Source of the DNA: a virus
Lineage: Duplodnaviria; Caudoviricetes
Direction: 5' to 3' (one strand)
Length of the DNA: 56,366 bases
Virus record (IMG/VR): IMGVR_UViG_3300037840_000311
Span: 1 to 56,366 of that record
Position numbers and translations under genes: made by a program
The notes under the pieces: generated by a model
Databases searched by the model: none
The model's input: only the letters and a program-made list of their open reading frames with translations
Told to the model about the DNA's origin: nothing
Shown: positions 537 to 55,460 of the stretch, piece by piece
Position numbering within the stretch: the stretch's first letter is position 1
How the letters are laid out: each line of letters starts with the position of its first letter

Positions 537-664
537 AGCGCTGGGTATTCTGGCTGATTTTGGTTCCACTATTTGCTTGGTTTGGCCGGGATGGAGGGAA
601 TTGGAATCAGTGGCGAGTTTTTGGGGATAAACCGCCGTTCGCCAGTTGGGGCAATTTGAAATAG
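533..664 (+). CDS. Small hydrophobic protein reading through a reversed right half-site
   Basis: ATGA coupling; MKRWVFWLILVPLFAW. Confidence 0.45.
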   Translation: MKRWVFWLILVPLFAWFGRDGGNWNQWRVFGDKPPFASWGNLK

Positions 665-680
665 TCAGGGCGCGGCGGCG
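618..680 (-). repeat. Right-type half-site on the minus strand
   Basis: Reverse complement reads CCGCCGCGCCC...CTGGCGAACGGCGGTTTATCCCC. Confidence 0.85.
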
Positions 681-752
681 GTTTCGTTTCATTTCCAGCC
701 CTACGAGAATCCCAAGTCTCAGGGCATCAGGACTCGAGCGCATCTTCGACGG

Positions 753-956
753 TCACGCCGGGTCCATCAACTTCGCCGCGAGCCTCAGAGCGCATTCTAC
801 CCCGCACACATGCTGATGTTTTGCGACAGCCTGAAACTCCCACGGCGCTATCAGAACTAAGCCGTCATCGGTACGCCAGACGCGCCACCAGTGATTTGTC
901 TCGCCCTTGAAGACGTTGCAGATATCGCACGTATACGGATTGGCTAATTCCGCCAT
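753..956 (-). CDS. Small zinc-finger-like protein
   Basis: CDIC ... HVCGVEC. Confidence 0.7.
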   Translation of the reverse strand: MAELANPYTCDICNVFKGETNHWWRVWRTDDGLVLIAPWEFQAVAKHQHVCGVECALRLAAKLMDPA

Positions 957-966
957 CAGGACGCCT

Positions 967-1018
967 TTTGTTTGGCCGCATCTGTTGCCGCAGGTTGAGG
1001 ATCGGCATTGCGCGGAGG
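967..1018 (+). repeat. Degenerate left half-site
   Basis: TTTGG at 971 and GCGCGG at 1010, the same 39-nt offset as canonical copies. Confidence 0.65.
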
Positions 1019-1118
1019 ATCTTTCACCAGGACTCGATAGCGCATCATGCAGACAATCCGCGCCACGGGTCCAAATAGCGCTTCAATAATCAAGCAGGCA
1101 GCGAACGCCCACAACGCA

Positions 1119-2894: not shown

Positions 2895-3218
2895 ATGTCA
2901 AAAAATAAAAAGCCTAAAAATAAAAAGCCTAAGGATTTAGCAGCCTCAGACGGCGCAGGCGTGGACAGTCAGGAGCGCGGAGGCGAGCCGTCAGCATTCG
3001 TGCAAGCGGATCGGATTTCAGATCGCATCGTGGATATTCTGAATGAGGAGCGGACCAAACCCGGCTTTAATCCAGTTCAGGCTTTCGCGGGCCAACTGCT
3101 AGCGATTCTTTCATTCGCGAGAACCGCGCCAGTCCCGCGACCTCAGCCAATGGCGAACCCGTCCGCTCCAGACCTTGCCCCACCGTCCAGCCCAAAAACC
3201 AAAGGAGACCCCGCGTGA
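2895..3218 (+). CDS. Hypothetical protein
   Basis: Coupled ORF; KNKKP tandem duplication; degenerate half-sites near both ends. Confidence 0.55.
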   Translation: MSKNKKPKNKKPKDLAASDGAGVDSQERGGEPSAFVQADRISDRIVDILNEERTKPGFNPVQAFAGQLLAILSFARTAPVPRPQPMANPSAPDLAPPSSPKTKGDPA

Positions 3219-3805
3219 TTATCAGACCAGAACCCAACAAGCCCCTAACCGTAAACTTGCTCTACGCCTCAGCCAAAGAGACCAAGGGGAAATACGGCAT
3301 CGACTTTCAATACACCTTGCAAGGTGGACATGCGCTCTTCGTCCCACCGATCGCGCACGATGAAATCCAGAAACTTCACGCCGGCCCAGGCGAACCGTTC
3401 ACGCTGACAAAAAGCATCGGGCAAGGAAATCAAGCCGTCTGGAAAGTAGAACGTATTGTACAAAACGGCGGGAACGAGCCAGGAAATGTCCAACAGGTTG
3501 AACAACCGGGCGGCCAGCCTTCCGGGATGAACCGCCCAGTTGAGCCACTCCCTCTTAGGAGCTCTATTGCCCCGAAGTCTATCACAAACGGAAACAAGCC
3601 GGTATCGGTCATGCCGACCGCGCCCACGCTGACCACGCGGCAATCGAGCGCCATGGTTCGGCAACTGATCGCCGCCGTCGATGCCTGCAAACTCGCTCAG
3701 GACTACGCCAAGTCTCAGAATATCGAGTTTGAAATCACAAGCGATATCATCTGCCGAGTGGCCATCACCGGGGGGATTCAGAGCTTCAAGGAGGGAGTTT
3801 ACTGA
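3215..3805 (+). CDS. Hypothetical protein (possible OB-fold/ssDNA-binding N-terminus)
   Basis: AAAGGAG RBS; beta-rich N-terminal half; function is a guess. Confidence 0.6.
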   Translation: MIIRPEPNKPLTVNLLYASAKETKGKYGIDFQYTLQGGHALFVPPIAHDEIQKLHAGPGEPFTLTKSIGQGNQAVWKVERIVQNGGNEPGNVQQVEQPGGQPSGMNRPVEPLPLRSSIAPKSITNGNKPVSVMPTAPTLTTRQSSAMVRQLIAAVDACKLAQDYAKSQNIEFEITSDIICRVAITGGIQSFKEGVY

Positions 3806-4481: not shown

Positions 4482-4861
4482 TGGACCCACAACCCGGTAG
4501 CGCCGATTGGAATAGCCCGATTGTCGACTTTATTGTCGATTTTACGCTGTTGTACGTCTGGATTGTCGGCAGTTAGTTTCTCGAGACCGGGCCGCAACTT
4601 CTAGCACGCGCATCCTAACCCCTTCGCGTGAAAAAAGGCTGGATCTCCTTCGAGTCCTCACCCCATGGAGTTGTGGCCCGATCTGGAGGGATTGAAAAAT
4701 GATCTTTTGGTCTGCTTTTTTCGCAACGATCCTGATAGTAGTCTCCGTCAACGAGTGGCGCGACCGGAGAGACGCCCGCCGCGCCGCCGACAGCCGGAGA
4801 CCTTCGCCGACCGACGAGCCCAAACACTGAAGATTTCCAACTGTCAGCCGATAATATTCTC

Positions 4862-5047: not shown

Positions 5048-6098
5048 TAACGGAAATAGAACTCCTGAAACTGAGAAATCCCGCGTAGCCGAATCGTATT
5101 CGCTATTCAAGAATTAATTCAGATCGCTCGTACCGCGTTGGTAGTCGAATGACCAAGATCGAATGGACGGACGAGACCTGGAACCCGACCCGCGGTTGCT
5201 CTCGAGTTTCCGAAGGTTGCCGGAATTGCTACGCCGAACGGCAGGCAGCAAGATTCAGTAATTCAAAACGCAGTGATGACGAAACTGTAGAACCGTTTCA
5301 CCTTTTTGCTGAGAGAACGCCAGCCGGCCCGCGTTGGACCGGCCGCGTCGAACTGATTGAGTCTAAGCTAACCGAACCGCTCCACTGGAAAAAGCCCCGG
5401 CGTGTGTTCGTCAACAGCATGTCGGATTTATTCCATGAGGCGCTATCGGATAACGCGATTCAAGAAGTTTTCGCTGTCATGGCCCTTTGCCCCCATATCA
5501 AGTTTCAGGTTCTCACCAAGCGAGCACAACGGATGCGGGAATGGTTGGCACATCCGCACCGGGTCAATTTCACAGCTATCCGCGCAGCGAACCTGGCAAG
5601 CACACACTTTGACCGTTACGAACAATTGACGCGCGCCCCGTATCAATGGCCCCTGGCCAACGTCTGGCTCGGTGTATCTGTAGAAGACCAGGCCAACAAG
5701 GACCGCATCGACCTCTTGCGCCAGACGCCGGCAGCCGTCCGTTTTTTGTCGATTGAACCGCTACTAGAAGACTTCGGCATGTTGAATCCTTTGGGCATCC
5801 ACTGGGTTATCGTAGGCGGGGAATCCGGCCCTCAGGCACGGCCTTGTGACCTCGCATGGATCAGATCTATCCGCGACCAGTGCCGAGCCGCCAGCGTGCC
5901 TCTATTCGTCAAGCAACTGGGAGCACGGCCGGGTTATCAACGTAAAGACGGATGGCGAGATATCGATTTGAAAGACCCAAAGGGCGGCAACTGGGACGAA
6001 TGGCCGCGCGATCTCCGTATCCGGGAGTTTTCCCGATAATGAACGCCACCGCGCGCCCGCGAGTCCAGATCGTTAGAAAAGCCCGTATTCCCAACAAA
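4984..6098. mobile_element. Putative cassette carrying the DUF5131 gene
   Basis: Left GTTGAATACAGGC...GGAGCGCGG and right CCACCGCGCGCCC...GCCCGTATTCCCAAC are mutually complementary variant ends. Confidence 0.55.
5149..6039 (+). CDS. DUF5131 / phage Gp37Gp68 family protein
   Basis: TKIEWTDETWNPTRGCSRVSEGCRNCYA, VFVNSMSDLFH, WVIVGGESG, FVKQLG motifs. Confidence 0.95.
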   Translation: MTKIEWTDETWNPTRGCSRVSEGCRNCYAERQAARFSNSKRSDDETVEPFHLFAERTPAGPRWTGRVELIESKLTEPLHWKKPRRVFVNSMSDLFHEALSDNAIQEVFAVMALCPHIKFQVLTKRAQRMREWLAHPHRVNFTAIRAANLASTHFDRYEQLTRAPYQWPLANVWLGVSVEDQANKDRIDLLRQTPAAVRFLSIEPLLEDFGMLNPLGIHWVIVGGESGPQARPCDLAWIRSIRDQCRAASVPLFVKQLGARPGYQRKDGWRDIDLKDPKGGNWDEWPRDLRIREFSR

Positions 6099-6485
6099 AG
6101 ATTAAAGCAACGCCGTGGCTCAGTGAAAGATCCAGCCTATCGAGCCTTTGTACGGAGTTTTGGGTGTATCGCTTGCTTCGGCGAACTCATACCGCCAGAC
6201 GAATTGGGCCCACTCGAATGCATGCTCCAAGGTTCAAGAACCGAATGCGCCCACGTCGGAGCCCGCGGTCTCTCCCAGAAGGCATCAGATTACGATTCTC
6301 TGCCTCTCTGTGCAATCGAACACCATCGAGTAGGCCCAGAGTCCCACCACAAGCTAGGGAAGCGATTCTGGGGCTTCCACGGGCTTAACCGAGTAGAACT
6401 TATCCACCAGTTGCAAGAGTTGTGGAAAACTGAAGTATTGGGCTCGACAGCCAAACCAAGAGGGGAATATGGAGGCGCGCGGTAG
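6039..6485 (+). CDS. DUF968/Ref-like HNH-type nuclease
   Basis: Y.AFVRSFGCIAC ... ECAH ... LPLC..HH. Confidence 0.75.
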   Translation: MNATARPRVQIVRKARIPNKRLKQRRGSVKDPAYRAFVRSFGCIACFGELIPPDELGPLECMLQGSRTECAHVGARGLSQKASDYDSLPLCAIEHHRVGPESHHKLGKRFWGFHGLNRVELIHQLQELWKTEVLGSTAKPRGEYGGAR

Positions 6486-7310
6486 CCGTGAAACCCCGCG
6501 CTGTGGACCTGTTTTGCTGTGCAGGGGGAGCGACCCGCGGTCTACAACTCGCCGGCTTCCACGTAACCGGAGTGGACTGGAAACCCCAGCGGCACTATAT
6601 TGGTGACGAATTTCACCAGGCCGATGCGCTCACTTTTCCGCTTAACGGATTCGATTTTATCTGGGCCAGCCCGCCGTGTCAGAAATTCACTGCGCTACGC
6701 CACATGCCCACCGCGAAAGAATATCCTGACCTGATACCGGAAACGCGCGCCCGGCTTGTCGCTTCCGGGATACCTTACGCGATTGAGAACGTAGAAGGAG
6801 CGCCGCTGGGTGAAAGTGGATACTTGATAATGCTCTGCGGAACCATGTTTGGGCTTCAGACCGCGGACGGCCGCGCGGAACTCCGGCGCCATCGGCTCTT
6901 TGAAACCAGTTTTTCGATTCCGCTCCGTCCTGCCTGCCAGCATGGACACGTTCCGATTTTGACCGTGTGTGGACACACCCCGGTGGATAACCCGCGCACG
7001 ATCTCAGTTACCGGCACAGGCGGCCGCAAAGGTGGGATGAAGGGAAGGGTAATACGTTCTATCACCGTGACTGGCAACACACCGCAAACGAACACCGTCC
7101 GAAACCGTGAACGGCAAACTTTTACAGTCCAACAGGCCCGTGAAGCCATGGGAATCGACTGGATGCCGATGAGCGCCTTGTCGCAGGCTATTCCGCCAGC
7201 CTACGCGAAATTTATCGGCCGCCAAACTCTGGAATGGATCGCCGATCAATCCCCAGCGCTCTCGAAACCCTGAAACCTGCCCCGACCGGCGAACGGCGGT
7301 TTATCCCTAA
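6437..7310. mobile_element. Putative cassette carrying the C5 methyltransferase
   Basis: Left TTGGGCTCGACAG...GCGCGG 6437-6486; right ...GGCGAACGGCGGTTTATCCC 7251-7310. Confidence 0.7.
6488..7273 (+). CDS. DNA (cytosine-5) methyltransferase
   Basis: DLFCCAGG, ASPPCQ, IENV, C-terminal AIPP. Confidence 0.92.
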   Translation: MKPRAVDLFCCAGGATRGLQLAGFHVTGVDWKPQRHYIGDEFHQADALTFPLNGFDFIWASPPCQKFTALRHMPTAKEYPDLIPETRARLVASGIPYAIENVEGAPLGESGYLIMLCGTMFGLQTADGRAELRRHRLFETSFSIPLRPACQHGHVPILTVCGHTPVDNPRTISVTGTGGRKGGMKGRVIRSITVTGNTPQTNTVRNRERQTFTVQQAREAMGIDWMPMSALSQAIPPAYAKFIGRQTLEWIADQSPALSKP

Positions 7311-10429: not shown

Positions 10430-10615
10430 CGCCAAGAGAGGCAGTTATCGAACTTGAGCGAGCCATAGCCCAGGCGATTGTAAAATACGAGATTGCCGTA
10501 CCAAGCGGCATTTGTATCGGCATTTTTGTAGACAGGCAGGCCGATGGATTCAAGGTGAAACCCCGCCTAAAAACACGTCCGGCATTGCGCGGAGATCAGG
10601 AGAGTGTTTCGTGAC
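10399..10615 (+). repeat. 32-bp imperfect direct repeats (10399-10430, 10584-10615) around gene 10426..10614
   Basis: ATTGCGCG(A/G)AGATCAGGAGAG(C/T)G(C/T)TTCGTGAC, 29/32 identical; includes RBS and start codon. Confidence 0.85.
10426..10614 (+). CDS. Small hypothetical protein
   Basis: AGGAG RBS, coupled. Confidence 0.6.
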   Translation: MTPREAVIELERAIAQAIVKYEIAVPSGICIGIFVDRQADGFKVKPRLKTRPALRGDQESVS

Positions 10616-11240
10616 CCTACCAACACAAGGCCAAGTTGATCCCTATCGGGTGGTAACGTCGCGACTTGGCGACTGGATTCAGACATTCACCGGGCTCGTC
10701 ATGTATCCACTCGATCCGCGACCGGAAGAGATTTGTATCGAAGACATCGCCCACGCCCTATCAAATCTGTGCCGATTCACCGGGCATTGCCGAGAGTTCT
10801 ACAGCGTTGCGGAGCATAGCGTCAGGGTCAGTTATGCCTGCGACCCGAAGGATGCTTTGTGGGGATTGTTGCACGATGCGCCAGAAGCTTATCTTGCCGA
10901 CATGAGCCGGCCCGTGAAGCGATATTCAGAATTTGGCGCGATCTATCGCCAGATTGAAGCGCGGCTCATGGATCAGATCGTTATTAAATTCGGGCTTTCT
11001 CAATTCGGCACGCCGGCCAGCGTGGAGTACGCCGACACCGTTTTACTGATGACTGAAAAGCGCGACCTGATGCACGGCTGCAACAAAGCATGGGAAGACA
11101 CGGCAGAGCCGCTCGAAGATATCATTCGACCGCGCTATCCCTACGATGCGCGCCAGATGTTTTTGAAGCGTTTCCGCCAACTCACAGCCAACGAGCGGAG
11201 CGCCCGCATAGAATCGCCCGATAGCCAACATTCAAAATAG
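10611..11240 (+). CDS. HD-domain phosphohydrolase (YfbR-like 5'-deoxynucleotidase)
   Basis: DIAHALSNLCRFTGH, FYSVAEHS, LLHDAPEAY. Confidence 0.92.
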   Translation: MTLPTQGQVDPYRVVTSRLGDWIQTFTGLVMYPLDPRPEEICIEDIAHALSNLCRFTGHCREFYSVAEHSVRVSYACDPKDALWGLLHDAPEAYLADMSRPVKRYSEFGAIYRQIEARLMDQIVIKFGLSQFGTPASVEYADTVLLMTEKRDLMHGCNKAWEDTAEPLEDIIRPRYPYDARQMFLKRFRQLTANERSARIESPDSQHSK

Positions 11241-11252
11241 GAAAACGCGAAC

Positions 11253-35743: not shown

Positions 35744-35756
35744 CTCGTTCACTTTT

Positions 35757-37033: not shown

Positions 37034-37043
37034 GAATGCTTTT

Positions 37044-37150: not shown

Positions 37151-37157
37151 CAAGCGT

Positions 37158-40565: not shown

Positions 40566-40569
40566 CCGC

Positions 40570-42299: not shown

Positions 42300-42310
42300 A
42301 AACGCTTTTA

Positions 42311-42780: not shown

Positions 42781-42792
42781 GAGCTTCTAAAA

Positions 42793-43350
42793 ATGCCTCT
42801 AGGACACCTCGGAACCTGCTCCTCAGACCTTCTCCAAGCAGAACAAAACATCAAGCGCTACACCAAAGACTACTGCGACATCATGAGCCAAAGGCCCCGG
42901 CCTCACGGTCTCCCGCCCTACATTCAACCTCCCAAGAACGCGGTACGCTGGCAACCGGGCAAGGACCAGCCGCTCGTCATCCCAGTCGGGCCGGAAACGG
43001 GATTCGACATCCTGGTATTCCAAGACCGCATCCCACCGGGCTATGACGGACTTCTCGTAGCGCTCACAAACATCTGGAATGGAACCGGCTTTGTGGAAGC
43101 GTCAGGAGACATCACCTGGCGCGTAAAGATAGATCAGCGATTCATCCCTTACTACGATACGATTCTCACCACGCTGGGGAGCCTGGCTGTGCCCTTCGAT
43201 ATCATCGGGCAAGGAATCCCGCTACTCTCCGGGCAACTCGTTCAGTACTTCGTGAACTTCGCCGTGGGATCGGATGCGCGATTGAATGCCGGAGGAATGA
43301 CGATTTGCGCGGCAACAGGATACGTCTGGCCGAGGGAGAGGTTAGCGTGA
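42793..43350 (+). CDS. Beta-rich putative structural protein
   Basis: RIPPGYDGLLVAL...ITWRVKID...GYVWP. Confidence 0.75.
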   Translation: MPLGHLGTCSSDLLQAEQNIKRYTKDYCDIMSQRPRPHGLPPYIQPPKNAVRWQPGKDQPLVIPVGPETGFDILVFQDRIPPGYDGLLVALTNIWNGTGFVEASGDITWRVKIDQRFIPYYDTILTTLGSLAVPFDIIGQGIPLLSGQLVQYFVNFAVGSDARLNAGGMTICAATGYVWPRERLA

Positions 43351-43530
43351 AAATGCTAATCGCTGCTCGATGCGGTCTAGGATCGTTTCAATGCGGTCAA
43401 GTCGACGGGCAAAATAGTCCAGTCGCCTTGATAGCCCGTCGAGTTGCTTATTGTTCGTCCAGATCCCGAACAAGACCGCGAGTACTATCGGAAGCGCGGT
43501 CGAAAGAAAAGACTGTAGCATCGGATTCAT
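43342..43530 (-). CDS. Antisense cargo, TM plus coiled-coil small protein
   Basis: LPIVLAVLFGIWTNNKQLD...RLDRIE; the plus frame from GTG 43347 is open into 43671. Confidence 0.65.
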   Translation of the reverse strand: MNPMLQSFLSTALPIVLAVLFGIWTNNKQLDGLSRRLDYFARRLDRIETILDRIEQRLAFSR

Positions 43531-43670
43531 TGGCTTCCAGTGTGCCACGAATCAGGTTTAGCGTCAATGAACCGAATTACTTAGTACTGTTTTTGGCCGC
43601 GTCATTCGACCCGCTCCGTCTCCGCGCTCCTGACCGCTGGAAACCTTCGACTTCAGCCGAGCCTCAAAAT

Positions 43671-45077
43671 ATGAAGACACTACTGCTCGCCTTGCTCATT
43701 CTCCCGTTAGCCTACGCTCAGCAACTCCAGCCGGTAACCTCCCAGCAAGCGGACTGCGGAAAGTTCATCCCGGCAATCACCACGGCAGGCACTTTCACAA
43801 GCGCCACGGTCACCAACACTCAGGCGGCTTGTGACGGATGGGTAGTCACCTACTCCTCTTTCGGCTTCGCTACGGTGTCCGTATTGCTTCAGGATGCCCC
43901 TCTGACAACCAACGGGGCAGCGGGAACCTTCGTCTCCTTCGCCGGCACAATCGTAACCGGCTTCACCAATCCATCGACGGCGACACCCCAGGGCGAAATC
44001 CGGGCCACGGGATACTTTCCGTACGTGCGTGTGCAAATCACCACAACAGGAACCGGATACCTCACTGCCGAATTTCACGGCTTCAAGACCAATCCCAATT
44101 CAGGCGTAGGAGCCTCGGGAGGCGGCGGGGGAGGAGGTTGTACCGCGCCGTGCGTTGTCATCGGCCCCACAGCAGCCGGAAGCCCACCTACGACCGCGCC
44201 AGTGCTGGTAGCCGGGCAGGATGGAGCACCGGGGAATATCCGAGTGATCCTGACCGATTCCAGCGGCCGGCAAATCATGAACGTCGCCCAATGGGGCGGA
44301 ACGACGGTATTGAACGGTGGAACTGCCGGATCGGTCGCAGTGGGAGGACTCGGAACGGCAGGAACACCTTCGGGCGGCGTTGTTTCAGTGCAAGGTGTGG
44401 CGGGAGGCACAGCCCAGCCGGTAACGCTGCCTGCAAATCAATCCGTGAACGTGGCCCAGGTAGCAGGAACGAATACCATCACCGGCGGCGTGGCGGGATC
44501 TCTGGGAATCGGAGGACTCGCGGCCGCTGGCGCCGCCATCGCCGGAAACTCAGTCCGAATCGGAGGCGTGGATGGAGGGGGAACCAAGCGGGATATTCTG
44601 ACCGATACCGCCGGACGGGTAATTGTTGCATCAAATGCCGGTTCCATCGTTTCAATCATAGGAACCCTCTTAAATAATGCAGTCTCGGCCACTACAACTA
44701 ACAATTTAGGCGTACTCCCAGCCGTGGCAAACGCCGCGCCGCAAACCTGGACAGAAGGTGATCAGGTTCTTGGGTCCGTCGACTTGAAAGGCAACCTCCG
44801 CACCACCATCGCCGGTAACGCGACCGTGCTCTCCGGCCAGCAAGCCGTCACCAACGCAGCAGTAGCCCTAGCAACCAACACGGTGAAGAATATCTGTGTG
44901 AAAGCCCTCGCTGGGAACACTCAGAATGTTTACGTGGGTCCAACCGGCATCACTACTTCCACAGGAATGGAACTTGCAGCCGGAGACGCTTATTGCAGCC
45001 CGGTAACCAACACCAATCTCATTTTCGTCATAGCCGCAGCGGGAGGCCAGAGCGTATCATGGATCGCCGAAAACTAG
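43671..45077 (+). CDS. Signal-peptide-bearing Gly/Thr-rich spike/adhesin-like protein
   Basis: MKTLLLALLILPLAYA-Q; internal repeats ILTD..GR and NVAQ..GT. Confidence 0.8.
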   Translation: MKTLLLALLILPLAYAQQLQPVTSQQADCGKFIPAITTAGTFTSATVTNTQAACDGWVVTYSSFGFATVSVLLQDAPLTTNGAAGTFVSFAGTIVTGFTNPSTATPQGEIRATGYFPYVRVQITTTGTGYLTAEFHGFKTNPNSGVGASGGGGGGGCTAPCVVIGPTAAGSPPTTAPVLVAGQDGAPGNIRVILTDSSGRQIMNVAQWGGTTVLNGGTAGSVAVGGLGTAGTPSGGVVSVQGVAGGTAQPVTLPANQSVNVAQVAGTNTITGGVAGSLGIGGLAAAGAAIAGNSVRIGGVDGGGTKRDILTDTAGRVIVASNAGSIVSIIGTLLNNAVSATTTNNLGVLPAVANAAPQTWTEGDQVLGSVDLKGNLRTTIAGNATVLSGQQAVTNAAVALATNTVKNICVKALAGNTQNVYVGPTGITTSTGMELAAGDAYCSPVTNTNLIFVIAAAGGQSVSWIAEN

Positions 45078-47016: not shown

Positions 47017-47075
47017 GCCACCGCGCGCCCGCAAGCTGAACGCCTTCGAGCACTGGCGAACGGAGGTTTATCCCA
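47017..47075 (+). repeat. Solo right half-site covered by 22-aa linker ORF 47011..47079
   Basis: CCACCGCGCGCCCGCAAG...CTGGCGAACGGAGGTTTATCCC; ATGA overlaps at both ends. Confidence 0.92.
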
Positions 47076-49094
47076 ATGAATCCGTTTCTCGCTTGCCTCA
47101 TAGCTCTCTGGCACTCGCTCTGGTTCTCGCCTCAGTTGTATCCGTTTCCTGGGAATCCACCAGTTGGTTCGGCACCAATTACTCTCGACGCCTCTTGCAC
47201 TGGAATAGGCAGTGCTTTCACCACCCCATGTTCATCACCAATGACCGTGACTGCTGGCGACACAATAACCTGCGAAGGTGTTATCTCTGCTTTCTCCGGA
47301 GAGTTTGGCTGGTTCAATGATGCTACCAACAATGCAATTTACGATACCGTCTACGGAGGACTTAATGGGACCAGCACGAATAACTGGGTAATCAGCGCCG
47401 TATATCCCAATTCAGCGGGTGGCTCTATAACCCCACAGATAAACGGATGGCCTTCCGGAGCTACTTCGTTTTTACTTTTGGCCTGTCAGGCGTGGAAAGG
47501 GACTCGCAGCACTTTTGTAGTAGATCCAACTCCGATCTTATTTAATGCCGCAAACGCATCGAATCCTACGGCAGGAACGGCGGTGACTCCTACAAACATC
47601 AATGAATTGATTGTTTGTCAGCTATCGCGTGCATCGGCGGCCACCACTTCTGCCGGATCGGGATTCAGCCCTGCCGGGACACTGACAGCCGTTACAGAAA
47701 ATTTGAGCCAATACTTTCAGTATCAGATTCAGACTGCCGCGACCGCCGTGAATTGCCCCTACACGTCCGCTTCGGCACAGTATACCGATACTCAGTTCGC
47801 ACTTCTGAATGCCGTCAATCCGGCGGGATATAGACCGCTCGGTGGAATGTACGGCTTCCCTGCATCGGCTCAGACCAATGGTGCGACCGCCACGCTAGCA
47901 ATTCTGAATACATCCAACTCAGGCTCCATTTGGGCCACGCACGGAAATCCTACTAACGCACCGTGGACCCAGTATTCCGGCGCTACAGTAACTTTCGATA
48001 CCTCGGTGAACCCCACAGGCACCGGAAAGATCATGGTCAACGGAAAGACCCATACATTCGGCGATGCGGGCGGCAGTGTGGCATTTCCCAACGGCAATGC
48101 AAGTAAAAACGCCTATCTGTTCACAGATTTGTCAGCTAATCAAGGCACTCCGATGTGGCTGTCTTATTTCTTTCGGGCCGCATCTGCTGGAGCAACTGCA
48201 TCGACGGGCTGCGATACGGTAGATTTATCGGGGGGAATCGTGGAGGGGGGCGTGGATGTTCAAGCACAATACACCACCGGCGGAACTCCTTTAGGATTTT
48301 TCATTGAACCCGCTGAAGGCGGTCATTCACCGGCCATAAGCGGGTTCAGCGCAGACACAGACTACTGGATACAGATTCACTCGGCGGGGGTAAATGAGCG
48401 ATACCACCAGGTGCTTGTGTCCAGCAAATCCGGTGGGGTATGGTCGTTATCAAGTACATTGAATTTCGACGCGCTGTGTGCAGCCCAAGGCGGCACTAAC
48501 TGCACGACGCCAGCTACGGTTGCCACGGGTTCAGGAACAGTGTCTTCAGGATCGAACTCTCTGGTACTCACGGGAGTAACCGGGACGGTATCGGTCGGCA
48601 ACGTCGTACTTGCCGCGTCGGGGAGCGCCATTCCCTATATCACGACAGTAGCGGCCTCGACGGTTTCGGCGGGTTCGGGAACGGTCACACTCTCTCAAAA
48701 CGCCGCCTCTCCCTTAAGCGCGGCGACCGTCAATTTCATAGCCAAGCCTGCCAATTTAATCGCAGCGACAACCGGGACAGTTTCAGCCGGTTCCACCGCA
48801 ATGACCATAGTAGTGCCGGGATCTGGGACCGTCGCTGTCGGGCAAGCGATCGGGAGCACAGATGGCAACATTCAGATGGGCACTGTAGTCGCCGCCGTAT
48901 CGGGCACCTCTGTCACACTTAACCAGGCTCCGGCCATCGCCGAATCTAGTGGCGTGTCATTTTGGAGAACATCACCAGGCTTGCCTAACTTTCCAATTGG
49001 AACATGGTCGTCTTGTGCGTTTACGAACACGCTTTGGTATAGCGGGGTAGTGTGGGACCCGTTAGGAACTTGGGGCCAGTTTGAGCCGAACTAA
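47076..49094 (+). CDS. Large beta-rich putative receptor-binding protein
   Basis: Hydrophobic N-terminus; Ser/Thr/Gly-rich; duplicated C-terminal module (GTVS.GS...V.VG...VTL.Q). Confidence 0.8.
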   Translation: MNPFLACLIALWHSLWFSPQLYPFPGNPPVGSAPITLDASCTGIGSAFTTPCSSPMTVTAGDTITCEGVISAFSGEFGWFNDATNNAIYDTVYGGLNGTSTNNWVISAVYPNSAGGSITPQINGWPSGATSFLLLACQAWKGTRSTFVVDPTPILFNAANASNPTAGTAVTPTNINELIVCQLSRASAATTSAGSGFSPAGTLTAVTENLSQYFQYQIQTAATAVNCPYTSASAQYTDTQFALLNAVNPAGYRPLGGMYGFPASAQTNGATATLAILNTSNSGSIWATHGNPTNAPWTQYSGATVTFDTSVNPTGTGKIMVNGKTHTFGDAGGSVAFPNGNASKNAYLFTDLSANQGTPMWLSYFFRAASAGATASTGCDTVDLSGGIVEGGVDVQAQYTTGGTPLGFFIEPAEGGHSPAISGFSADTDYWIQIHSAGVNERYHQVLVSSKSGGVWSLSSTLNFDALCAAQGGTNCTTPATVATGSGTVSSGSNSLVLTGVTGTVSVGNVVLAASGSAIPYITTVAASTVSAGSGTVTLSQNAASPLSAATVNFIAKPANLIAATTGTVSAGSTAMTIVVPGSGTVAVGQAIGSTDGNIQMGTVVAAVSGTSVTLNQAPAIAESSGVSFWRTSPGLPNFPIGTWSSCAFTNTLWYSGVVWDPLGTWGQFEPN

Positions 49095-49106
49095 GCGAGG
49101 CTGTTT

Positions 49107-49574
49107 ATGATTCTCCTCACCTTCGAAGACATCCAACCCGCGAACCCAAAACCACCCTCCAACTGGCCCTACCTGATAGCCGTGATCCTCATGGCTGCTT
49201 TCGGCGTGATCGCCGTATTGATCTTGACCAAGCTGCGCCCGACTCAGGACAACAGCATGCTGATTACAACGGTGATCGGGTTCTTGTCAACAACAACAGG
49301 CGTGATCCTGACCTTCATGAAAGCGGCCGATACCCACGATGCAGTGAACGGGCAACTCAGACGATTCCTGGATACAGCAAGGCAGGTATCGCACTACGAA
49401 GGCCAGGCACAAGGAAGGATCGAGGGAATCGCTGAAGGGGAATTGAGACACCCGATGCAAGCCGTCATCCCGGTTGTGCTTCAGCCAGCGCCGCCGATTC
49501 TACCCACCGCCCCCGCGCTTTCACCCGTACAACCCGCGCCCACTGATGCGGCCAACAAAAAGGAGTCCTCATGA
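49107..49574 (+). CDS. Two-TM holin-like protein
   Basis: Two TM segments directly upstream of the lysozyme-like gene. Confidence 0.6.
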   Translation: MILLTFEDIQPANPKPPSNWPYLIAVILMAAFGVIAVLILTKLRPTQDNSMLITTVIGFLSTTTGVILTFMKAADTHDAVNGQLRRFLDTARQVSHYEGQAQGRIEGIAEGELRHPMQAVIPVVLQPAPPILPTAPALSPVQPAPTDAANKKESS

Positions 49575-50489: not shown

Positions 50490-50550
50490 GCCACCGCGCG
50501 CCCACATTTCCAACCCTGCCCCGGCTGGCGCACGGCGGTTTTCCCAAAAA
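50490..50550 (+). repeat. Right half-site
   Basis: CCACCGCGCGCCC...CTGGCGCACGGCGGTTTTCCCAAAAA. Confidence 0.85.
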
Positions 50551-50847: not shown

Positions 50848-50881
50848 TATACTGGACTTGCGTTTGCATTGTCAGCCTCTT

Positions 50882-50920
50882 GGCCCGTTTCCACACGAAC
50901 TGGAGCGGGCCGTTTTTTTG
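50882..50920 (+). terminator. Intrinsic terminator
   Basis: GGCCCGTTTCCA / TGGAGCGGGCC stem followed by a T7 run. Confidence 0.75.
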
Positions 50921-50949
50921 TTTGACCGCCTCTCATTCCCAAGCTCCCC

Positions 50950-50978
50950 TTGACAACGAATGCTTCATGGAGCATACT
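50950..50978 (+). promoter_or_regulatory. Sigma70-like promoter
   Basis: TTGACA-17-CATACT. Confidence 0.6.
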
Positions 50979-51005
50979 GACCACTTGAACCGGCAAGAGC
51001 AATTC

Positions 51006-51155
51006 ATGCGCGAGCTTCAAGCCCTCGTCAATAAATATTTCGTCCCGACGATGAACGAGCTCCGATCCGAAAAGCTCACACCAAAGAAGCGTAAGGAAAT
51101 AGCCCAAAAAGCGGCAAGGGCCAGATGGGGGAAGAAACCAGATGTCAATCCATGA
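51006..51155 (+). CDS. Small basic protein (LTPKKRKEIAQKAARARW motif; start uncertain)
   Basis: Motif related to 1772..1981. Confidence 0.6.
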   Translation: MRELQALVNKYFVPTMNELRSEKLTPKKRKEIAQKAARARWGKKPDVNP

Positions 51156-51462
51156 TGGAATACGCCTGATAGCGATTACGTGCCCGCGTATTTATTGCGA
51201 TGTCTGCCAGAGGACTTTCCCGCGCGGACTTGAACCGATCATGACGATTCGGCTGGCAACGGAAAAGCCCAGCGCATACCGTTGGGACAACAGCGAAGCG
51301 ACGTATACAGCCGATGGAATTCCAACGACTGTAGATGCCTACCTCGCCGACGCAATTGCTGCCGGATGGAAACAGGTGGACTTTTTCGGGAAACCGCAGA
51401 TAGTCTGCACAAATTGCGCCACCGCGCCCCCGCGACCGCCGAAAACCCCGTGGAACCGTTGA
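51142..51462 (+). CDS. Zinc-finger-like protein ending in a right half-site
   Basis: CDVC...GW...CTNC. Confidence 0.65.
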   Translation: MSIHDGIRLIAITCPRIYCDVCQRTFPRGLEPIMTIRLATEKPSAYRWDNSEATYTADGIPTTVDAYLADAIAAGWKQVDFFGKPQIVCTNCATAPPRPPKTPWNR

Positions 51463-51472
51463 GCCCAAAAAC
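51419..51472 (+). repeat. Right half-site, GAGCCCAAA type
   Basis: CCACCGCGCCC...GTTGAGCCCAAAAA. Confidence 0.85.
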
Positions 51473-51483
51473 AGAATGAGCCC

Positions 51484-52647
51484 ATGCCCGACAATTTCAA
51501 ATTCCTACCAGATCATTCGACCAACCCTGATCATTCTCCTCTCAGGAGACACACCCCCACTCCCCACCCCGACAGTTTCATCGACGACTACTCCCACGCC
51601 AGACCGGGCATCTGGCCCCTGCCCGACAAGTTGCACGTGATGACGGTTCTGAGCAACCCCCCGCGGTTTCGATCCAGGTACAACCTCTACCGCGAGTACT
51701 CGAAACGTGTGCTCGACTCCTCGGCCATCCTTCACACCTGTGAAATCGCTTTTGGTCAGCGGCATTTTGAAATCACGGACCCCAATAACCCCCATCACCT
51801 TCAACTTCGCACTAGCCATGAACTTTGGCACAAAGAGAACGGCCTGAATCTGCTGATCGCCAACGCGCGGCGGCTCTACCCGGAAATGCGGTACGTTGCA
51901 TGGATCGACGCGGATATTCAATTCGCCCGGCCAGATTTCGCGCAAGAAACCCTCCATCAACTGCAGCATTTCGACTTCGTGCAGATGTTTTCTCACGCTC
52001 AGAATCTTGGACCGGAAGGCCAGCCGATCGATGAGAAAACCACGCCAGGTTTCATGTGGAGCTACGCCAATGATCGGCCGAACCCTCACGACGCCCCGGA
52101 CGGTTGGGACTGGGCAACCCAATTTCAAACCTCATCGGCCGATGGCGTAAGCCCTATGTGCTACTACTCCATGCTGCCGGAGCAAGCCGGCCCGATTTCG
52201 TGGAAATTCACGCACCCCGGTTTTTGTTGGGCAGCCCGCGTCGACGCCCTCGACAAAGTAGGCGGTTTGATCGATTTCGGCATCCTGGGATCCGGCGATT
52301 ATCACATGGCTTGTGCCCTGGTAGGCCACGTCGAATACAGCCTCGCTAGAGAAATGCCGGAGCGGTACAAGTACCTCTGCTACCAGTGGCAAGAGCGGGC
52401 GGAAAAGCACATTCGCCGAAACGTGGGATACGTGCCCGGTTTGGTCAATCACGGATGGCACGGCAGACGCGCAGCCAGGCTCTATGACAAGCGCTGGAAG
52501 TTCCTGAAGGTCTCAGGCTTCGATCCAGATCTAGACCTCAAGAAAGACTCGCAAGGTCTCTGGCAGTTGACGGACAGAAGCTATCAACTGAGAGACGGGC
52601 TCAGGGATTACGCCCGATTGAGAAACGAAGATTCCATTGACCTATGA
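51484..52647 (+). CDS. Putative GT-A-fold glycosyltransferase-like protein
   Basis: LWHKEN.LN, VAWIDADI (DxD), HPGFCWA, LGSGD, HGWHG. Confidence 0.7.
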   Translation: MPDNFKFLPDHSTNPDHSPLRRHTPTPHPDSFIDDYSHARPGIWPLPDKLHVMTVLSNPPRFRSRYNLYREYSKRVLDSSAILHTCEIAFGQRHFEITDPNNPHHLQLRTSHELWHKENGLNLLIANARRLYPEMRYVAWIDADIQFARPDFAQETLHQLQHFDFVQMFSHAQNLGPEGQPIDEKTTPGFMWSYANDRPNPHDAPDGWDWATQFQTSSADGVSPMCYYSMLPEQAGPISWKFTHPGFCWAARVDALDKVGGLIDFGILGSGDYHMACALVGHVEYSLAREMPERYKYLCYQWQERAEKHIRRNVGYVPGLVNHGWHGRRAARLYDKRWKFLKVSGFDPDLDLKKDSQGLWQLTDRSYQLRDGLRDYARLRNEDSIDL

Positions 52648-52792: not shown

Positions 52793-53539
52793 ATGAGAAC
52801 CACCAAACGCATGGGATGGATACCGGACCTCCCCGACCAGAGAGACCACAAGTATGGCCGTGCTCTGTTGGCGAAACTCCCCTTCGCCGTCTCACTCCGC
52901 GCCAACGCCGGGCCGATCTACGATCAAGGAAACATCGGCTCATGCACCGCGCAAGCCATCGCCGCGGCCATCGTGTACGAAGAGAAGAAACAGAGCCTAC
53001 CCGAAATCTTCCCCTCGCGCTTGTTCATCTACTACAACGAGCGGGTGATCGAGAATTCCGTATCGAGCGACTCCGGCGCCCAGATCCGGGACGGCATCAA
53101 GAGCGTAGTGAACCAGGGAGTTTGCAACGAAAGATCCTGGGGATACGAACACGCTTTTGACGATGTACCGTGGTCGAAGTGCTACACCGAGGCCAAGCGC
53201 GATCTCGTCAAGCAGTATCTGAGCTTGGACCCCGACTTGAACCAGATGCAAACCTGTCTCGCGGCAGGCTTCCCTTTTATCGTGGGATTCACGGTGTACG
53301 ACTCGTTCCAATCGGACGCGGTAGCTAACTCTGGACATGTGCCGATGCCGGGACCCTCTGAGCAGGTGATCGGCGGGCATGCGGTTTTGTGTTTGGGGTA
53401 CGATAACGCGAGTCAAACATTCCTTTGTCAGAACTCGTGGGGAAAAGACTGGGGAATGCAAGGGTTTTTCACAATGCCCTATGCGTATTTAACGGATTCA
53501 AATTTAGCTGGAGACTTTTGGTCTATCAGGATGGTGTGA
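52793..53539 (+). CDS. Papain-like C1 family cysteine peptidase
   Basis: DQGNIGSCTA, SRLFIYY, GGHAV, NSWGKDWG. Confidence 0.95.
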   Translation: MRTTKRMGWIPDLPDQRDHKYGRALLAKLPFAVSLRANAGPIYDQGNIGSCTAQAIAAAIVYEEKKQSLPEIFPSRLFIYYNERVIENSVSSDSGAQIRDGIKSVVNQGVCNERSWGYEHAFDDVPWSKCYTEAKRDLVKQYLSLDPDLNQMQTCLAAGFPFIVGFTVYDSFQSDAVANSGHVPMPGPSEQVIGGHAVLCLGYDNASQTFLCQNSWGKDWGMQGFFTMPYAYLTDSNLAGDFWSIRMV

Positions 53540-53889
53540 GTTTGGCTTCACCAGACGAACGCAAGAGCGAGACAGAACGGCAGCGCGGCGGCGATTTGTA
53601 TAGCGTTGTTCTTGACAGGGCAACCGAGAACTACGAGCAGGCTTTCGCGTGGAACAAGCCGGAAAATGGATCTGGTTATCATGCCATCAGCCTAAACAGG
53701 CTCATCCATGCAGAAGCTCAGATTGAAGTGTTGGAAATCTTCAATTGCGGCCAAGTTGGGGGTTATGATCGCGGACAGGAAGCGGCAGGCCGCCGATCAC
53801 TGAAAGATCGGCTCGCTTGGCTCAAATCTCATCGCCCCAGCGCCCCAACAAGCCCGGACCCGAGACCAACAGGTGAACCCAAACCATGA
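53536..53889 (+). CDS. Sense cargo ORF spanning a left/right pair
   Basis: Left TTTGGCTTCACCAG...GCGCGG 53541-53592; right ...CAGGTGAACCCAAA about 53835-53883; coupled at both ends. Confidence 0.6.
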   Translation: MSLASPDERKSETERQRGGDLYSVVLDRATENYEQAFAWNKPENGSGYHAISLNRLIHAEAQIEVLEIFNCGQVGGYDRGQEAAGRRSLKDRLAWLKSHRPSAPTSPDPRPTGEPKP

Positions 53890-54188
53890 AACGCTCTTGT
53901 CTCATCTGCCTCATCCTCCCCTTGCTGTTCGCCCAAACCCAGCTCCGCATTGACTCCCAAGTATCCCCCTTGCCTACCGTGATCGTGGCTCAGTACGCCA
54001 CTTGCATCGGACTACCCTCTTGCGCCGGGATACAGTACGCGCAGTTCAAGATGAGCGACGGCACGACGCGCGGCCCCTTTTGGCTTGTGCCGACCACTCC
54101 AGGTTTCGCGCTTGATGTGAACTGGACCTCGATTCCGGTTACCACGCCGGCAGGAACCGCAGCAAATTGCTCACAGGTGAAGCCATGA
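53886..54188 (+). CDS. Small secreted-type protein
   Basis: MKRSCLICLILPLLFA-Q. Confidence 0.7.
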   Translation: MKRSCLICLILPLLFAQTQLRIDSQVSPLPTVIVAQYATCIGLPSCAGIQYAQFKMSDGTTRGPFWLVPTTPGFALDVNWTSIPVTTPAGTAANCSQVKP

Positions 54189-54550
54189 CAACAACAGGTT
54201 GGAATACGGTCAATATAGCGATGTTGACGGTCGCCGTTATCTTGATGAACTTGCCGACGTTTCTTCACGGACAGCCCACCGTCACCCAGTCCTACGGTCT
54301 CACTTTAGAGCGAGACGACTTTCCGCCATCGAACGCCGGCGATACGACCTTTCAGACGCCAGTCTCGACGCGCAGCTCGTTCGTGTTGGTCTATCGAAAC
54401 GGACTCCTGCAGCGGGCGGGAACCAATTGTACGCCAGTTCCGCCAGCGTCCGCAAATTGCGATTATTCGGTATCGGGGAATGTCACAGTGACCTTTCCAG
54501 GGCCAGGAATGGCAGCGGGAGACCTCGTTACGATTCTGTTTCAGCGATGA
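54185..54550 (+). CDS. Small secreted-type beta protein
   Basis: Signal-like N-terminus; LVYRNGLLQ...DYSVSG..VTF...GD.V motif. Confidence 0.75.
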   Translation: MTTTGWNTVNIAMLTVAVILMNLPTFLHGQPTVTQSYGLTLERDDFPPSNAGDTTFQTPVSTRSSFVLVYRNGLLQRAGTNCTPVPPASANCDYSVSGNVTVTFPGPGMAAGDLVTILFQR

Positions 54551-54747
54551 AAAGGCTATCACCTGAACGGCGGCGAGAAATTGGAAGGCAGGGCGGATTA
54601 GCCGCTCAAGAACGGCGCCGAGCATGGGTAGTAAGCTGGGCGCGAACCTGTGCGATTTACCGTTGGGCTGCACTCATCGTGAGGGATTTTCACGGCCCCA
54701 ATGCGATCCTGCAATCGAGTCTAGGCCCAACCAAAGGAGCACGGTAA
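54547..54747 (+). CDS. Small basic protein (LSPERRREIGRQGG motif)
   Basis: Motif related to 1772..1981. Confidence 0.55.
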   Translation: MKRLSPERRREIGRQGGLAAQERRRAWVVSWARTCAIYRWAALIVRDFHGPNAILQSSLGPTKGAR

Positions 54748-54954
54748 ATGTGTTGGCATCGACCCGGTAGAAAGACGAAATCAGGAACGGTCACCTGTCG
54801 CTCTTGCGGAGTCGCTATCGAGCAATGCCCCTGTGTTGGGCAGTGGAGCCGGAGCGTCGACCATGATTGTACGGCCTGTCTTGGTTCGATGTGGTGCGCC
54901 ATCGTGCGCGGATGGAGAGCAAAACTGTGGGAACTCCTGGAGAACGCCGCATGA
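54748..54954 (+). CDS. Cys-rich small protein
   Basis: AAAGGAG RBS; CxxC pairs. Confidence 0.6.
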   Translation: MCWHRPGRKTKSGTVTCRSCGVAIEQCPCVGQWSRSVDHDCTACLGSMWCAIVRGWRAKLWELLENAA

Positions 54955-55460
54955 GCGAAACAGACCAAGTTTCGATGAAGCGCCACACCCCGCGAAAGTA
55001 TCGCCGAGGTTCCCGCAAATGGCGCGAACACTGGACGGTAATGCTGGAGTGGATCGGCAACAAGCCCCAGGTTCTACCGTTGATCGAGCACCACATCCGA
55101 TTGGCAAGCGATGGCTCAGGAACCATGCTGGCATGCAGCCTGAATGATGCAACCTGGACATGCTACCGTAAGACTGACGCGGAGCATCTATTCGGAAGGC
55201 TGAAACGCTTGGGCCGAATACGATTCTCGCCCTACGTTCGCGTCCAACTGTTCCACGATTTCAAGGATGTGCCGATCCATTTTGGGCCAGAGGGATCAAT
55301 CGCCATATCTGAACTCGGCAGAGGCGTCAAGCGGCTCGCGGTCTACCGGCTCGGCAAAACGCCCGACTTTAGCAAACTCTACCGTAAGCCACCGCGCGCC
55401 CGCAAGAAAAAGAGCGTTTCAAGCCTCAAGCCCAAACAAAAAGGAGCAAAGAGCAAGTGA
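54951..55460 (+). CDS. Hypothetical protein ending through right half-site 55389-55440
   Basis: Coupled; CCACCGCGCGCCCGCAAG...AAGCCCAAACAA. Confidence 0.65.
   Translation: MSETDQVSMKRHTPRKYRRGSRKWREHWTVMLEWIGNKPQVLPLIEHHIRLASDGSGTMLACSLNDATWTCYRKTDAEHLFGRLKRLGRIRFSPYVRVQLFHDFKDVPIHFGPEGSIAISELGRGVKRLAVYRLGKTPDFSKLYRKPPRARKKKSVSSLKPKQKGAKSK

Follow-up and report, generated by a model that had tools for sequence, protein, structure and literature searches.

T4-like phages carry promoter-early stem-loops (PeSLs), direct repeats that combine a sigma-70-like promoter with a terminator hairpin, and the indels and replacements that these elements show between related phages have been attributed to recombination between the repeats (PMC2839356 and PMC4122927, according to the available parts of both reports). 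Cluster K mycobacteriophages contain a 13-bp start-associated sequence (SAS) together with imperfect inverted repeats that are separated by a 4-13-bp spacer. In the accessible sections of that report the start-associated and extended start-associated sequences (ESAS) consist of the 13-bp motif and two 17-bp repeats, lie nearly all in one orientation, and have no known function (PMC3203893). Here we describe a family of 45-55-bp repeat units in the virus record IMGVR_UViG_3300037840_000311 (Duplodnaviria; Caudoviricetes), whose 56,366 bases are the whole stretch of DNA that was analysed (the window), and in two complete relatives from IMG/VR (G001, 56,029 bp; G002, 53,692 bp). Pairs of units that face each other form slots between plus-strand genes. 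Slots are empty or hold accessory genes (cargo), mostly on the opposite strand, and most are spanned by one plus-strand open frame, the relay frame, that joins the neighbouring genes stop to start. Our tentative reading, with not quite an even chance of being right, is that the units are conserved boundary modules that would keep translation coupled across accessory inserts and would double as recombination points.

Like PeSLs, as far as these are covered by the sources at hand, the units of the window are short composite repeats that span the interval between the stop of one gene and the Shine-Dalgarno sequence and start codon of the next, are concentrated where accessory genes vary, and mark insertions, deletions and replacements between relatives. 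Unlike PeSLs, they carry no promoter or terminator signal that we could find, with the reservations that the promoter consensus may not be that of the host and that abutting halves make a GC palindrome. They also form facing inverted pairs with mostly antisense cargo in a slot that is kept as a coupled open frame, and the window phage is unrelated to the T4-like phages. With the SAS/ESAS pair, as described in those sections, the units share an asymmetric motif just upstream of many start codons, often after imperfect inverted repeats with a short variable spacer, and conservation among related phages without a known function. In contrast to SAS/ESAS, the arms in the window are 45-55 bp long, occur in both orientations and lie up to ~1 kb apart. 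The accessible text does not describe SAS/ESAS as split by genes or as marking gene gain and loss (PMC3203893), and the sequences of the two families are unrelated beyond short, chance-level similarity.

An initial annotation of the window had reported about 40 bipartite half-sites, empty or loaded with genes, as parts of a candidate system for cassette capture or inversion. That count was fair. A profile search with nhmmer returned 34 non-overlapping units at E<=0.02 (Table 1), or one per 1.7 kb, and one further weak copy at 6435-6486 (E=4e-4), while the profiles of the left (L) and right (R) halves gave 47 and 27 mutually overlapping matches at E<1. G001 contains 34 units and G002 contains 26. 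The motif is also enriched over shuffled sequence: TTTGGGCTCRACAG was matched 16 times with at most 2 mismatches (0.77 expected) and GGCGGTTTAYCCC was matched 18 times (3.08 expected), counts that none of 100 shuffles reached in either case. The outer end of the unit comes in two variants, A (GTTTGGGCTC, also written ..CTTTTWGTTTGGGCTC) and B (ACGGCGGTTTAYCCC), and both share an inner core that terminates in GCGCGG. Since the L profile matches R copies on the opposite strand and vice versa, the halves are inverted versions of one core. What had been taken for a distinct right end, GAGCCCAAA, is an A-type unit in inverted orientation. Nor are there fixed left and right end types, as had been supposed, because either type occurs on either side: A faces A at 27744/28622 in the window, and B faces B at 3675/4529 of G001rc ('rc' denotes coordinates on the reverse complement of a relative's record). 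The near-fixed offset of ~39 nt reported for the left half was recovered as a distance of 37-39 nt between TTGGG and GCGCGG in 40 of the 42 A-type copies from the three genomes. In an alignment of 42 A and 38 B copies from these genomes, only short blocks are invariant and the middle is variable; a motif filter had first removed cross-hits of the other type, which left 42 of 52 hits to the L model and 38 of 45 to the R model.

Inward-facing pairs either abut or enclose 0.2-1 kb of cargo. The three empty copies (27402-27509, 37045-37148 and 38382-38488) are as first described: the elements span ~105-115 bp, with inverted arms and 6-9 nt between GCGCGG and CCGCGC. A near-perfect GC palindrome (GCGCGG-N6-9-CCGCGC) is present only where the halves abut, and it has no T-run. 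In the window, 17 of the 18 B units are on the plus strand, mostly just upstream of a plus-strand start, and A units occur in both orientations. Sixteen of the 21 left-pointing units have a plus-strand start at most 51 nt downstream (spacing 2 to 51 nt), and six right-pointing A units begin at most 14 nt from a plus-strand stop. Units are also found inside coding sequence. Two A units extend the C-termini of the genes 6039-6485 and 14659-14943 and end in GCGCGG-TAG-NN-start; at 6435-6486 this reads GCGCGG-TAG-CC-GTG, and the following gene starts at that GTG. In all three genomes the N-terminus of the helicase-methylase is made up by an A unit. The B unit 30526-30577, previously paired with the L unit at 29473, is instead an in-frame insert of 72 bp (24 codons), relative to G001, in the 713-aa gene 29885-32026. 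Since L and R are each read in two frames, conservation acts at the level of the nucleic acid. As a separate observation, three antisense cargo proteins (24995-25279, 27739-27933 and a minus-strand frame in 24240-24560) end in ..EPKQ or ..QPKQ followed by the stop. These last residues come from the A-type outer end, read on its reverse complement, and the flank of that end gives the stop codon too.

Within a genome, even the most similar copies agree at only 80-87% over 60-115 bp (in the window, 86% over 64 bp), which does not support recent activity. Because copies within a genome are no closer to each other than orthologous copies are between genomes, the family is old and constrained rather than the product of a recent burst. 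Units are retained at orthologous junctions: the A unit after gene g77 is shared with the g77 homologues of G001, G002 and the metagenome contig L017, and orthologues of the unit 36517-36567 lie upstream of the g72 homologues of both G001 and G002. No comparable repeat family was found in 20.8 kb of a more distant relative (L016, 27% identity in g77), and a scan of IMG/VR for the exact B motif gave only two single hits, which we take as chance. Among bacterial and archaeal genomes, 85 stretches contained one exact match each to the L pattern, and the 80 of these that were re-scanned with both profiles contained no second unit. These are therefore chance matches, and no host family was seen.

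Further evidence for our reading lies in the plus strand of the slots. A single plus-strand open frame spans 15 of the 17 slots that we chose from the unit maps of the three genomes, whereas ~1.4 would be expected (Poisson-binomial P ~3e-18). This expectation was taken from opposite-strand stretches of equal length and is generous, since these include real minus-strand genes. In the window, every slot that bears antisense genes is covered by one such frame. All eight antisense open reading frames (ORFs) of at least 57 codons are fully covered by a plus-strand frame, compared to 11 of 79 other ORFs. The frames are also coupled to their neighbors. In seven of nine window slots the first start of the frame is at -1 (RTGA) or +2 (TAATG, TGATG) from the upstream stop. 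In all nine the ATG of the next gene is at most 5 nt from the stop of the frame, and six of these junctions are ATGA overlaps. The slot frames of G001 and G002 show the same pattern of stop/start coupling. Nothing in this analysis was more surprising than the relay frame that crosses antisense genes. The initial annotation had missed this apparently translated frame, which changes what the role of the halves most likely is.

The codon usage of the antisense genes points in the same direction. TTA, CTA and TCA, the codons that read as plus-strand stops, occur once in 785 codons of these genes, although their own composition predicts 17-20. The same codons make up 237 of 11141 codons (2.1%) in other genes and 35 of 1594 (2.2%) in an ordinary minus-strand block. 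The remaining A-ending codons of the antisense genes are at a normal level (17.7% vs 18.2%), and so is the GC content at third positions. The codons of eight of the nine antisense ORFs are in line with those of the relay frame, which is the only register in which synonymous choice can avoid the stops, and the sole TCA is located in the one non-aligned, doubtful ORF. The depletion reflects selection, or filtering, that keeps the plus-strand frame open.

The antisense genes, not the relay frames, are the real genes. This conclusion follows from the family match of the DUF1003 protein, from a tRNA-Met found in a slot, from the synonymous share of changes in g84, and from codon-usage scores. The tRNA gene lies antisense beside the g84 homologue of G001 (L012:557-628, which is G001rc 55402-55473, minus strand; 62.9 bits), and the plus-strand frame is open across it. 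A second tRNA, guessed in G001 cargo near G001rc 47640, was rejected, as neither ARAGORN nor Rfam found one. Of the codon changes in g84, a share of 0.39 is synonymous when read in the minus frame and a share of 0.15 when read in the relay frame, which contains no stop in any of the three genomes. Eight antisense ORFs were scored for codon usage: seven reach 0.09-0.27 per codon, and the doubtful g69 has 0.04. Confident genes (in the codon counts, ORFs of at least 150 codons) have 0.15 +/- 0.04, compared to 0.00-0.05 for relay frames, whose translations resemble antisense junk. Genes were called with a home-made codon-usage caller, not with a standard program.

Comparison with the relatives shows what changes at the units. 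G001 and G002 were found by protein search and by a two-block DNA pattern, and are collinear with the window at 65-87% nucleotide and 24-98% protein identity. Two short metagenome contigs (L017 and L018) supply further g77 neighborhoods. As the initial annotation had anticipated, the content between half-sites differs, and empty, loaded and element-free states are found at the same junctions. Between g53 and g55 the window has the 115-bp empty element 1, whereas in G001 and G002 this element is missing and the genes overlap as ATGA. Between g55 and g57, the A unit at 27744 and a 64-aa antisense ORF form a 233-bp insert that is present only in the window, with CTGATG at both flanks. Between g72 and g74, empty element 2 of the window corresponds to ~350 bp of cargo in G001. 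The stretch 39399-40569 (L, cargo and R) is missing in contig L018, where 9 nt separate the g77 homologue from a glycosyltransferase gene, and the methylase-like slot 6435-7306 is missing in G001. Cargo is mobile, as had been proposed: g84 is located between g83 and g86 in the window, between g86 and g88 (with the tRNA-Met) in G001, and between g72 and g77 in G002. Both g75 and g84 occupy three different slots across the three genomes, and the order of plus-strand genes is unchanged. In addition, G001 holds two diverged g77 homologues (G001rc 48430-49278 and 50862-51745; 70% nucleotide identity) with slots between them.

Units are present at 28 of 36 variable junctions but at one of 8 conserved junctions between the window and G001 (Fisher p 0.001), and at 26 of 36 versus one of 8 between the window and G002 (Fisher p 0.003; blocks of at least 50 aligned residues were compared). 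Since variable gaps are longer, this enrichment is only suggestive. Two further parts of the cassette proposal found no support in the comparison. As to inversion, none of the homologous blocks changed strand (0/46 between the window and G001, 0/48 between the window and G002). As to precise cassette boundaries, the homology of g84 among the three genomes does not reach beyond the start and stop of the gene itself, which lies at varying distances from L. Contigs from public runs over 24000-43990 showed the same sequence with 0 differences in long contigs, and the 'joints' in them were all places where the alignment leapt from one repeat copy to another (with sides of 20 and 64 letters). These contigs are uninformative on excision or inversion, since contigs drop rare variants.

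Insertion of foreign DNA into an operon carries two established hazards, the loss of translational coupling and Rho-type termination on untranslated RNA. The left unit lies on or just after the upstream stop codon and supplies a start codon, and the right unit ends just before the ribosome-binding site and start of the next gene. We propose that whatever the slot contains (nothing, a sense gene or antisense genes) would then be read on the plus strand as one relay frame. Because this frame is coupled stop-to-start at both ends, ribosomes would never leave the long plus-strand message. Downstream coupling would thus survive the insertion of accessory genes and so, probably, would protection from premature transcript termination. 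Since the same conserved borders are found again and again, at many junctions and in relatives of the phage, the units may also serve as recombination points at which accessory genes and whole elements are gained, lost or shifted between slots. The likeliest route would be exchange driven by homology in the course of mixed or multi-copy replication, rather than through a dedicated integrase.

Several observations weigh against this reading. Translation of the relay frames is suggested by sequence features only. Two of the 17 slots require two successive frames, and in the sense slot 6435-7306 a stretch of 189 nt past the stop of the cargo has no relay frame. Copies that are 80-87% alike within a genome are ill suited to homologous exchange. 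The RecT, Erf and YqaJ families were not found in the three genomes, and no phage recombination function was identified. The divergence of the relatives (65-87% nucleotide identity) is too great to place exchange junctions at the level of bases. Moreover, short invariant blocks at fixed spacing resemble protein recognition, so that a recombinase or transposase of unknown family could fit, and boundary modules for coupling leave unexplained what reads these blocks.

One elaboration would include such an enzyme. The ~105-bp element could be a docking site, a translated palindromic linker that is opened at its center by an unrecognised enzyme and takes up genes, with a preference for those in antisense orientation and in codon register, which would leave a relay frame free of stops. 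The repeats would then be recombination site and translational on- and off-ramps in one. We consider this possible but unlikely. A regulatory role of the motifs may coexist with either the coupling or the enzyme account.

It is possible, though less likely in our view, that the slots are true mobile cassettes: the units would be terminal inverted repeats, or the arms of a palindromic site, recognised by a sequence-specific phage or host enzyme of unknown family, and the empty L-R copies would be a miniature or unoccupied form. The invariant blocks with their fixed spacing, the variable middle and the lack of RNA structure fit protein recognition, and in the empty copies the arms meet as a near-perfect GC palindrome. 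Whole units come and go, as L-R between g53 and g55, as L plus cargo between g55 and g57, as L-cargo-R between g77 and the glycosyltransferase gene, and as a solo in-frame R within a gene. Cargo that changes slots keeps its orientation. Short direct repeats flank whole-unit inserts (GTGA..ATGA, CTGATG..CTGATG, GTGA..ATGA), but these need not be target duplications, since their lengths differ and they are themselves stop and start codons. Near-identical copies are missing, partner L and R units match no better than random combinations, and no host family was seen. In agreement with the initial annotation, no known recombinase could be detected: a six-frame search of the three genomes found no tyrosine (PF00589) or serine (PF00239) recombinase, Y1 transposase or rve integrase, and these families are also missing from the ORFs of the window that were scanned (70 against Pfam, 40 against PHROGs). 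The PF00589 search gave 0/3 genomes at E<=1, whereas controls matched 14/14.

Known mobile systems offer partial parallels. Like MITEs (miniature transposable elements with inverted repeats) and Rickettsia palindromic elements, as the available portion of the source presents them (PMC10969869), the units are small inverted-repeat elements without a transposase, are present or absent by junction, and occur in-frame inside protein genes (R in 29885-32026, L in the helicase-methylase gene). Unlike MITEs, they show no near-identical copies, their halves enclose genes, they reach the density given above in a phage genome, and no related family was found in the bacterial genomes scanned. Their flanking direct repeats, which vary in length and double as stop and start codons, may or may not be target duplications. 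With integron cassettes and their attC sites they share arrays of variable, mostly promoter-less accessory genes and imperfect palindromic site borders. Unlike integrons, there is no IntI-type recombinase, and cargo lies mostly antisense within a split palindrome, not between whole sites of the same orientation. The sites have conserved sequence blocks instead of a fold or shared structure, so that the attC-like behavior considered in the initial annotation is not supported. The boxes of attC are ordered RYYYAAC..GTTRRRY, and the outer ends in the window (GTTTGGGC..GCCCAAAC) have the opposite order. Invertible segments and shufflons (Gin/Hin/Cin, Rci) likewise have inverted repeats that flank DNA segments in a mobile genome, but here no invertase family was found and no block is inverted between genomes. 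What remains of the cassette idea is variable, mobile content without a known recombinase; inversion and likeness to attC are not supported.

The assignment of cargo also needs revision. DUF5131 (5149-6039), the HD-like gene and the helicase-methylase (10611-14081) had been listed as cargo, but they lie between R and the next L, outside inward-facing pairs. For the proposed C5 methylase, a methylase-like gene is indeed located in a slot, but its family match is weak (21.6 bits vs a cut-off of 22).

A purely regulatory role appears doubtful. On this account the units are phage promoters or operators (the B motif upstream of starts), start-associated translation-initiation signals, or sites for a phage regulator, and content varies there because phage genomes tolerate insertions only at gene boundaries. 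The plus-strand bias of the B units and their location upstream of starts, the retention of orthologous copies, and the persistence of the motifs across genomes whose proteins have diverged to 24-65% identity are consistent with this idea, as is the comparable pair in Cluster K mycobacteriophages, to the extent that the source covers it (PMC3203893). However, units lie in both orientations relative to plus-strand transcription, have either end type on either side, and are tolerated within coding sequence in two frames. In 24000-43990 we found 4 sigma-70-like promoters (7.4 expected; the consensus may not be that of the host) and 27 terminator-like hairpins (23.8 expected), none of which coincides with a unit. 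Regulation alone accounts neither for antisense cargo purged of plus-strand stops nor for the absence of whole units at tightly coupled junctions in relatives.

Very improbable is long-range pairing of L and R in the plus-strand transcript, by which cargo would be looped out and processed, perhaps by RNase III. In its favor, L and R are inverted versions of a single core. Against it, shuffled sequences fold just as well as the empty elements (z = -0.23, 0.01 and -0.21), and complementarity between partners equals that of random combinations (mean score 6.61 vs 6.59, p=0.50, 18 pairs). Neither covariation nor a consensus structure was found among 42 L and 38 R copies (consensus fold with 0 pairs for L and 3 pairs for R), and looped-out cargo would not need an open frame. 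Hardly credible is a genuine protein family encoded by the L..R frames, whose members would have a common N-terminus from L and a common C-terminus from R: L often has ATG followed by hydrophobic codons and several frames end in ..NGG(L/F)(S/P)Q.., but there are two reading frames for each half, the frames score close to zero in codon usage, their synonymous share is 0.15 vs 0.39 on the opposite strand, the three relay ORFs scanned have no Pfam match, and the translations look antisense.

Table 1. Repeat units, cargo genes and relay frames of the window (E values of units from nhmmer)
Feature	Position	Strand	Remark
B-type unit, core pointing right	625-675	-	E=8e-10
A-type unit, variant GTTTGGCCGC	970-1015	+	E=1e-6
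A-type unit, inverted	4779-4825	-	E=7e-5; + start 37 nt downstream
A-type unit, weak; C-terminal extension of gene 6039-6485	6435-6486	+	E=4e-4; 1 mismatch
B-type unit; contains stop of methylase-like gene 6488-7273	7254-7306	+	E=7e-13
A-type unit; 3' end of gene 14659-14943	14894-14940	+	E=6e-4; ends GCGCGG-TAG-CG-ATG
B-type unit, solo, between two minus-strand genes	17492-17541	+	E=1e-13; same place in G001 (87% identity)
A-type unit in minus-strand block, on start of gene 18585-19070	19015-19060	-	E=2e-6
B-type unit	21825-21878	+	E=4e-11; + start 51 nt downstream
A-type unit without partner; begins relay frame 24239-24637	24253-24299	+	E=3e-7
A-type unit, left slot border	25000-25046	+	E=3e-6
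B-type unit, right slot border	25287-25336	+	E=1e-9
A-type half, empty element 1	27402-27447	+	E=1e-7
B-type half, empty element 1	27457-27509	+	E=2e-12
A-type unit, left border	27744-27790	+	E=1e-8
A-type unit, inverted, right border, within small gene 28511-28687	28622-28665	-	E=1e-7
A-type unit	29473-29517	+	E=7e-8; + start 9 nt downstream
B-type unit, solo, inside gene 29885-32026	30526-30577	+	E=1e-12
A-type unit, inverted	33947-33990	-	E=6e-4; + start 35 nt downstream
A-type unit, left border of DUF1003 slot	35772-35817	+	E=3e-9
B-type unit, right border of DUF1003 slot	36517-36567	+	E=2e-10
A-type half, empty element 2	37045-37090	+	E=8e-5
B-type half, empty element 2	37097-37148	+	E=4e-10
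A-type half, empty element 3	38382-38426	+	E=1e-4
B-type half, empty element 3	38436-38488	+	E=5e-11; + start 14 nt downstream
A-type unit after g77	39410-39455	+	E=9e-8
B-type unit, right border	40497-40550	+	E=4e-15
A-type unit, left border of g84 slot	42311-42356	+	E=3e-6
B-type unit, right border of g84 slot	42723-42774	+	E=4e-12
B-type unit, partial	43622-43660	+	E=1e-3; + start 11 nt downstream
B-type unit	47021-47073	+	E=1e-12; + start 3 nt downstream
A-type unit, inverted, 3' end of gene 49107-49574	49513-49555	-	E=7e-3
B-type unit	50493-50544	+	E=8e-8; + start 16 nt downstream
A-type unit, inverted	51422-51469	-	E=2e-3; + start 15 nt downstream
A-type unit, inverted	53840-53884	-	E=2e-3; + start 2 nt downstream
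Sense cargo, methylase-like gene	6488-7273	+	missing at this junction in G001
Antisense cargo g50 (94 aa)	24995-25279	-	C-terminus from reverse complement of A-type unit
Antisense cargo g56 (64 aa)	27739-27933	-	
Antisense cargo g71, DUF1003 membrane protein	36075-36473	-	Pfam PF06210, E=3.4e-24
Antisense cargo g75	37625-38050	-	different slot in each of three genomes
Antisense cargo g78 and g79	39464-40039	-	
Antisense cargo g84	42362-42553	-	different slot in each of three genomes; minus frame coding
Relay frame	24239-24637	+	ATG 2 nt after upstream TAA; stop overlaps next ATG
Relay frame over antisense g50	24986-25363	+	ATGA overlap at both ends
Relay frame through empty element 1 (40 codons)	27393-27515	+	start GTGA, end ATGA
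Relay frame over antisense g56	27730-27966	+	TGATG at both ends
Relay frame over antisense DUF1003 gene (279 codons)	35757-36596	+	stop overlaps g72 ATG; codon-usage 0.018/codon
Relay frame, empty element 2	37030-37161	+	GTG on upstream TGA or ATG 37036; stop overlaps next ATG
Open frame over antisense g75/g76 and empty element 3	37487-38509	+	ends 5 nt past g77 ATG
Relay frame over antisense g78/g79	39395-40087	+	start GTGA, end ATGA
Relay frame over antisense g84	42296-42790	+	start ATGA; stop 5 nt before next ATG

The window is the whole virus record and a complete phage genome with direct terminal repeats of 127 bp, and its sequence is present in two public soil metagenome runs (DNA), either of which may be the source sample; no RNA run with the sequence was listed. 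Few of its scanned ORFs matched any family; those that did include a DnaB helicase, DUF5131, an SNF2-plus-methylase protein, an HD-like protein, a GroES-like domain, a glycosyltransferase and a papain-like protease, with weak matches to tail-fibre and tape-measure proteins. Since no terminase, portal or major capsid family was recognised among the ORFs scanned against Pfam and PHROGs, the phage belongs to a poorly known lineage of tailed phages; an integrase was not recognised either. The phage is probably virulent and represents a lineage that has yet to be described. Neither Rfam nor a tRNA scan gave a match in the window, and the phage collection contained no near match to 24000-44000.

Some neighboring genes deserve mention in their own right. 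The protein 32232-33155 combines an ice-binding-like domain (E=6e-49) with a following He_PIG Ig-like domain and is probably a surface or fibre protein. The 387-aa protein 51484-52647 is 98% identical to its G002 homologue, compared to 30-89% for its neighbors and 87% for the local DNA; judged from these identities, it may be either very strongly constrained, possibly as a capsid protein, or recently exchanged. A two-gene module (55734-56240 and 67-369) spans the ends of the record. Because it sits between the homologues of 28684-29124 and 29526-29885 in G001 and G002, it must have moved in the genome of the window. The minus-strand protein 1119-1772 resembles a J-domain (DnaJ-like) by language-model features and predicted structure (TM 0.65; ESM Atlas) and matches PHROG 9210, which has no known function. 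In the ESM Atlas neither this protein nor 3215-3805, which falls in viral hypothetical clusters, resembles a recombinase, and a sequence search of solved structures with four unknown proteins of the window returned nothing useful. The plus-strand proteins 23358-24239, 24635-24820 and 26782-27396 share a hydrophobic tail followed by basic residues (..VVLFLMMRR, ..VVLFLMMRK and ..VLMMMGKKR before the stop), which looks like a C-terminal membrane anchor or sorting signal.

If boundary modules of this kind do keep translation coupled, opposite-strand accessory genes would be carried in a tightly coupled operon, with downstream expression intact, by way of an open junk frame. The codon signature, a loss of TTA, CTA and TCA only, would offer a simple and portable test by which other genomes could be examined for hidden translation. 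An enzyme, if one takes part, would lie outside the families recognised by current profiles. The repeats mark where this little-known lineage of soil phages stores and exchanges accessory genes, and genes for host interaction and counter-defence usually reside at places of this kind. Borders that bring their own start and a coupled stop would be natural landing pads for the engineering of such phages.

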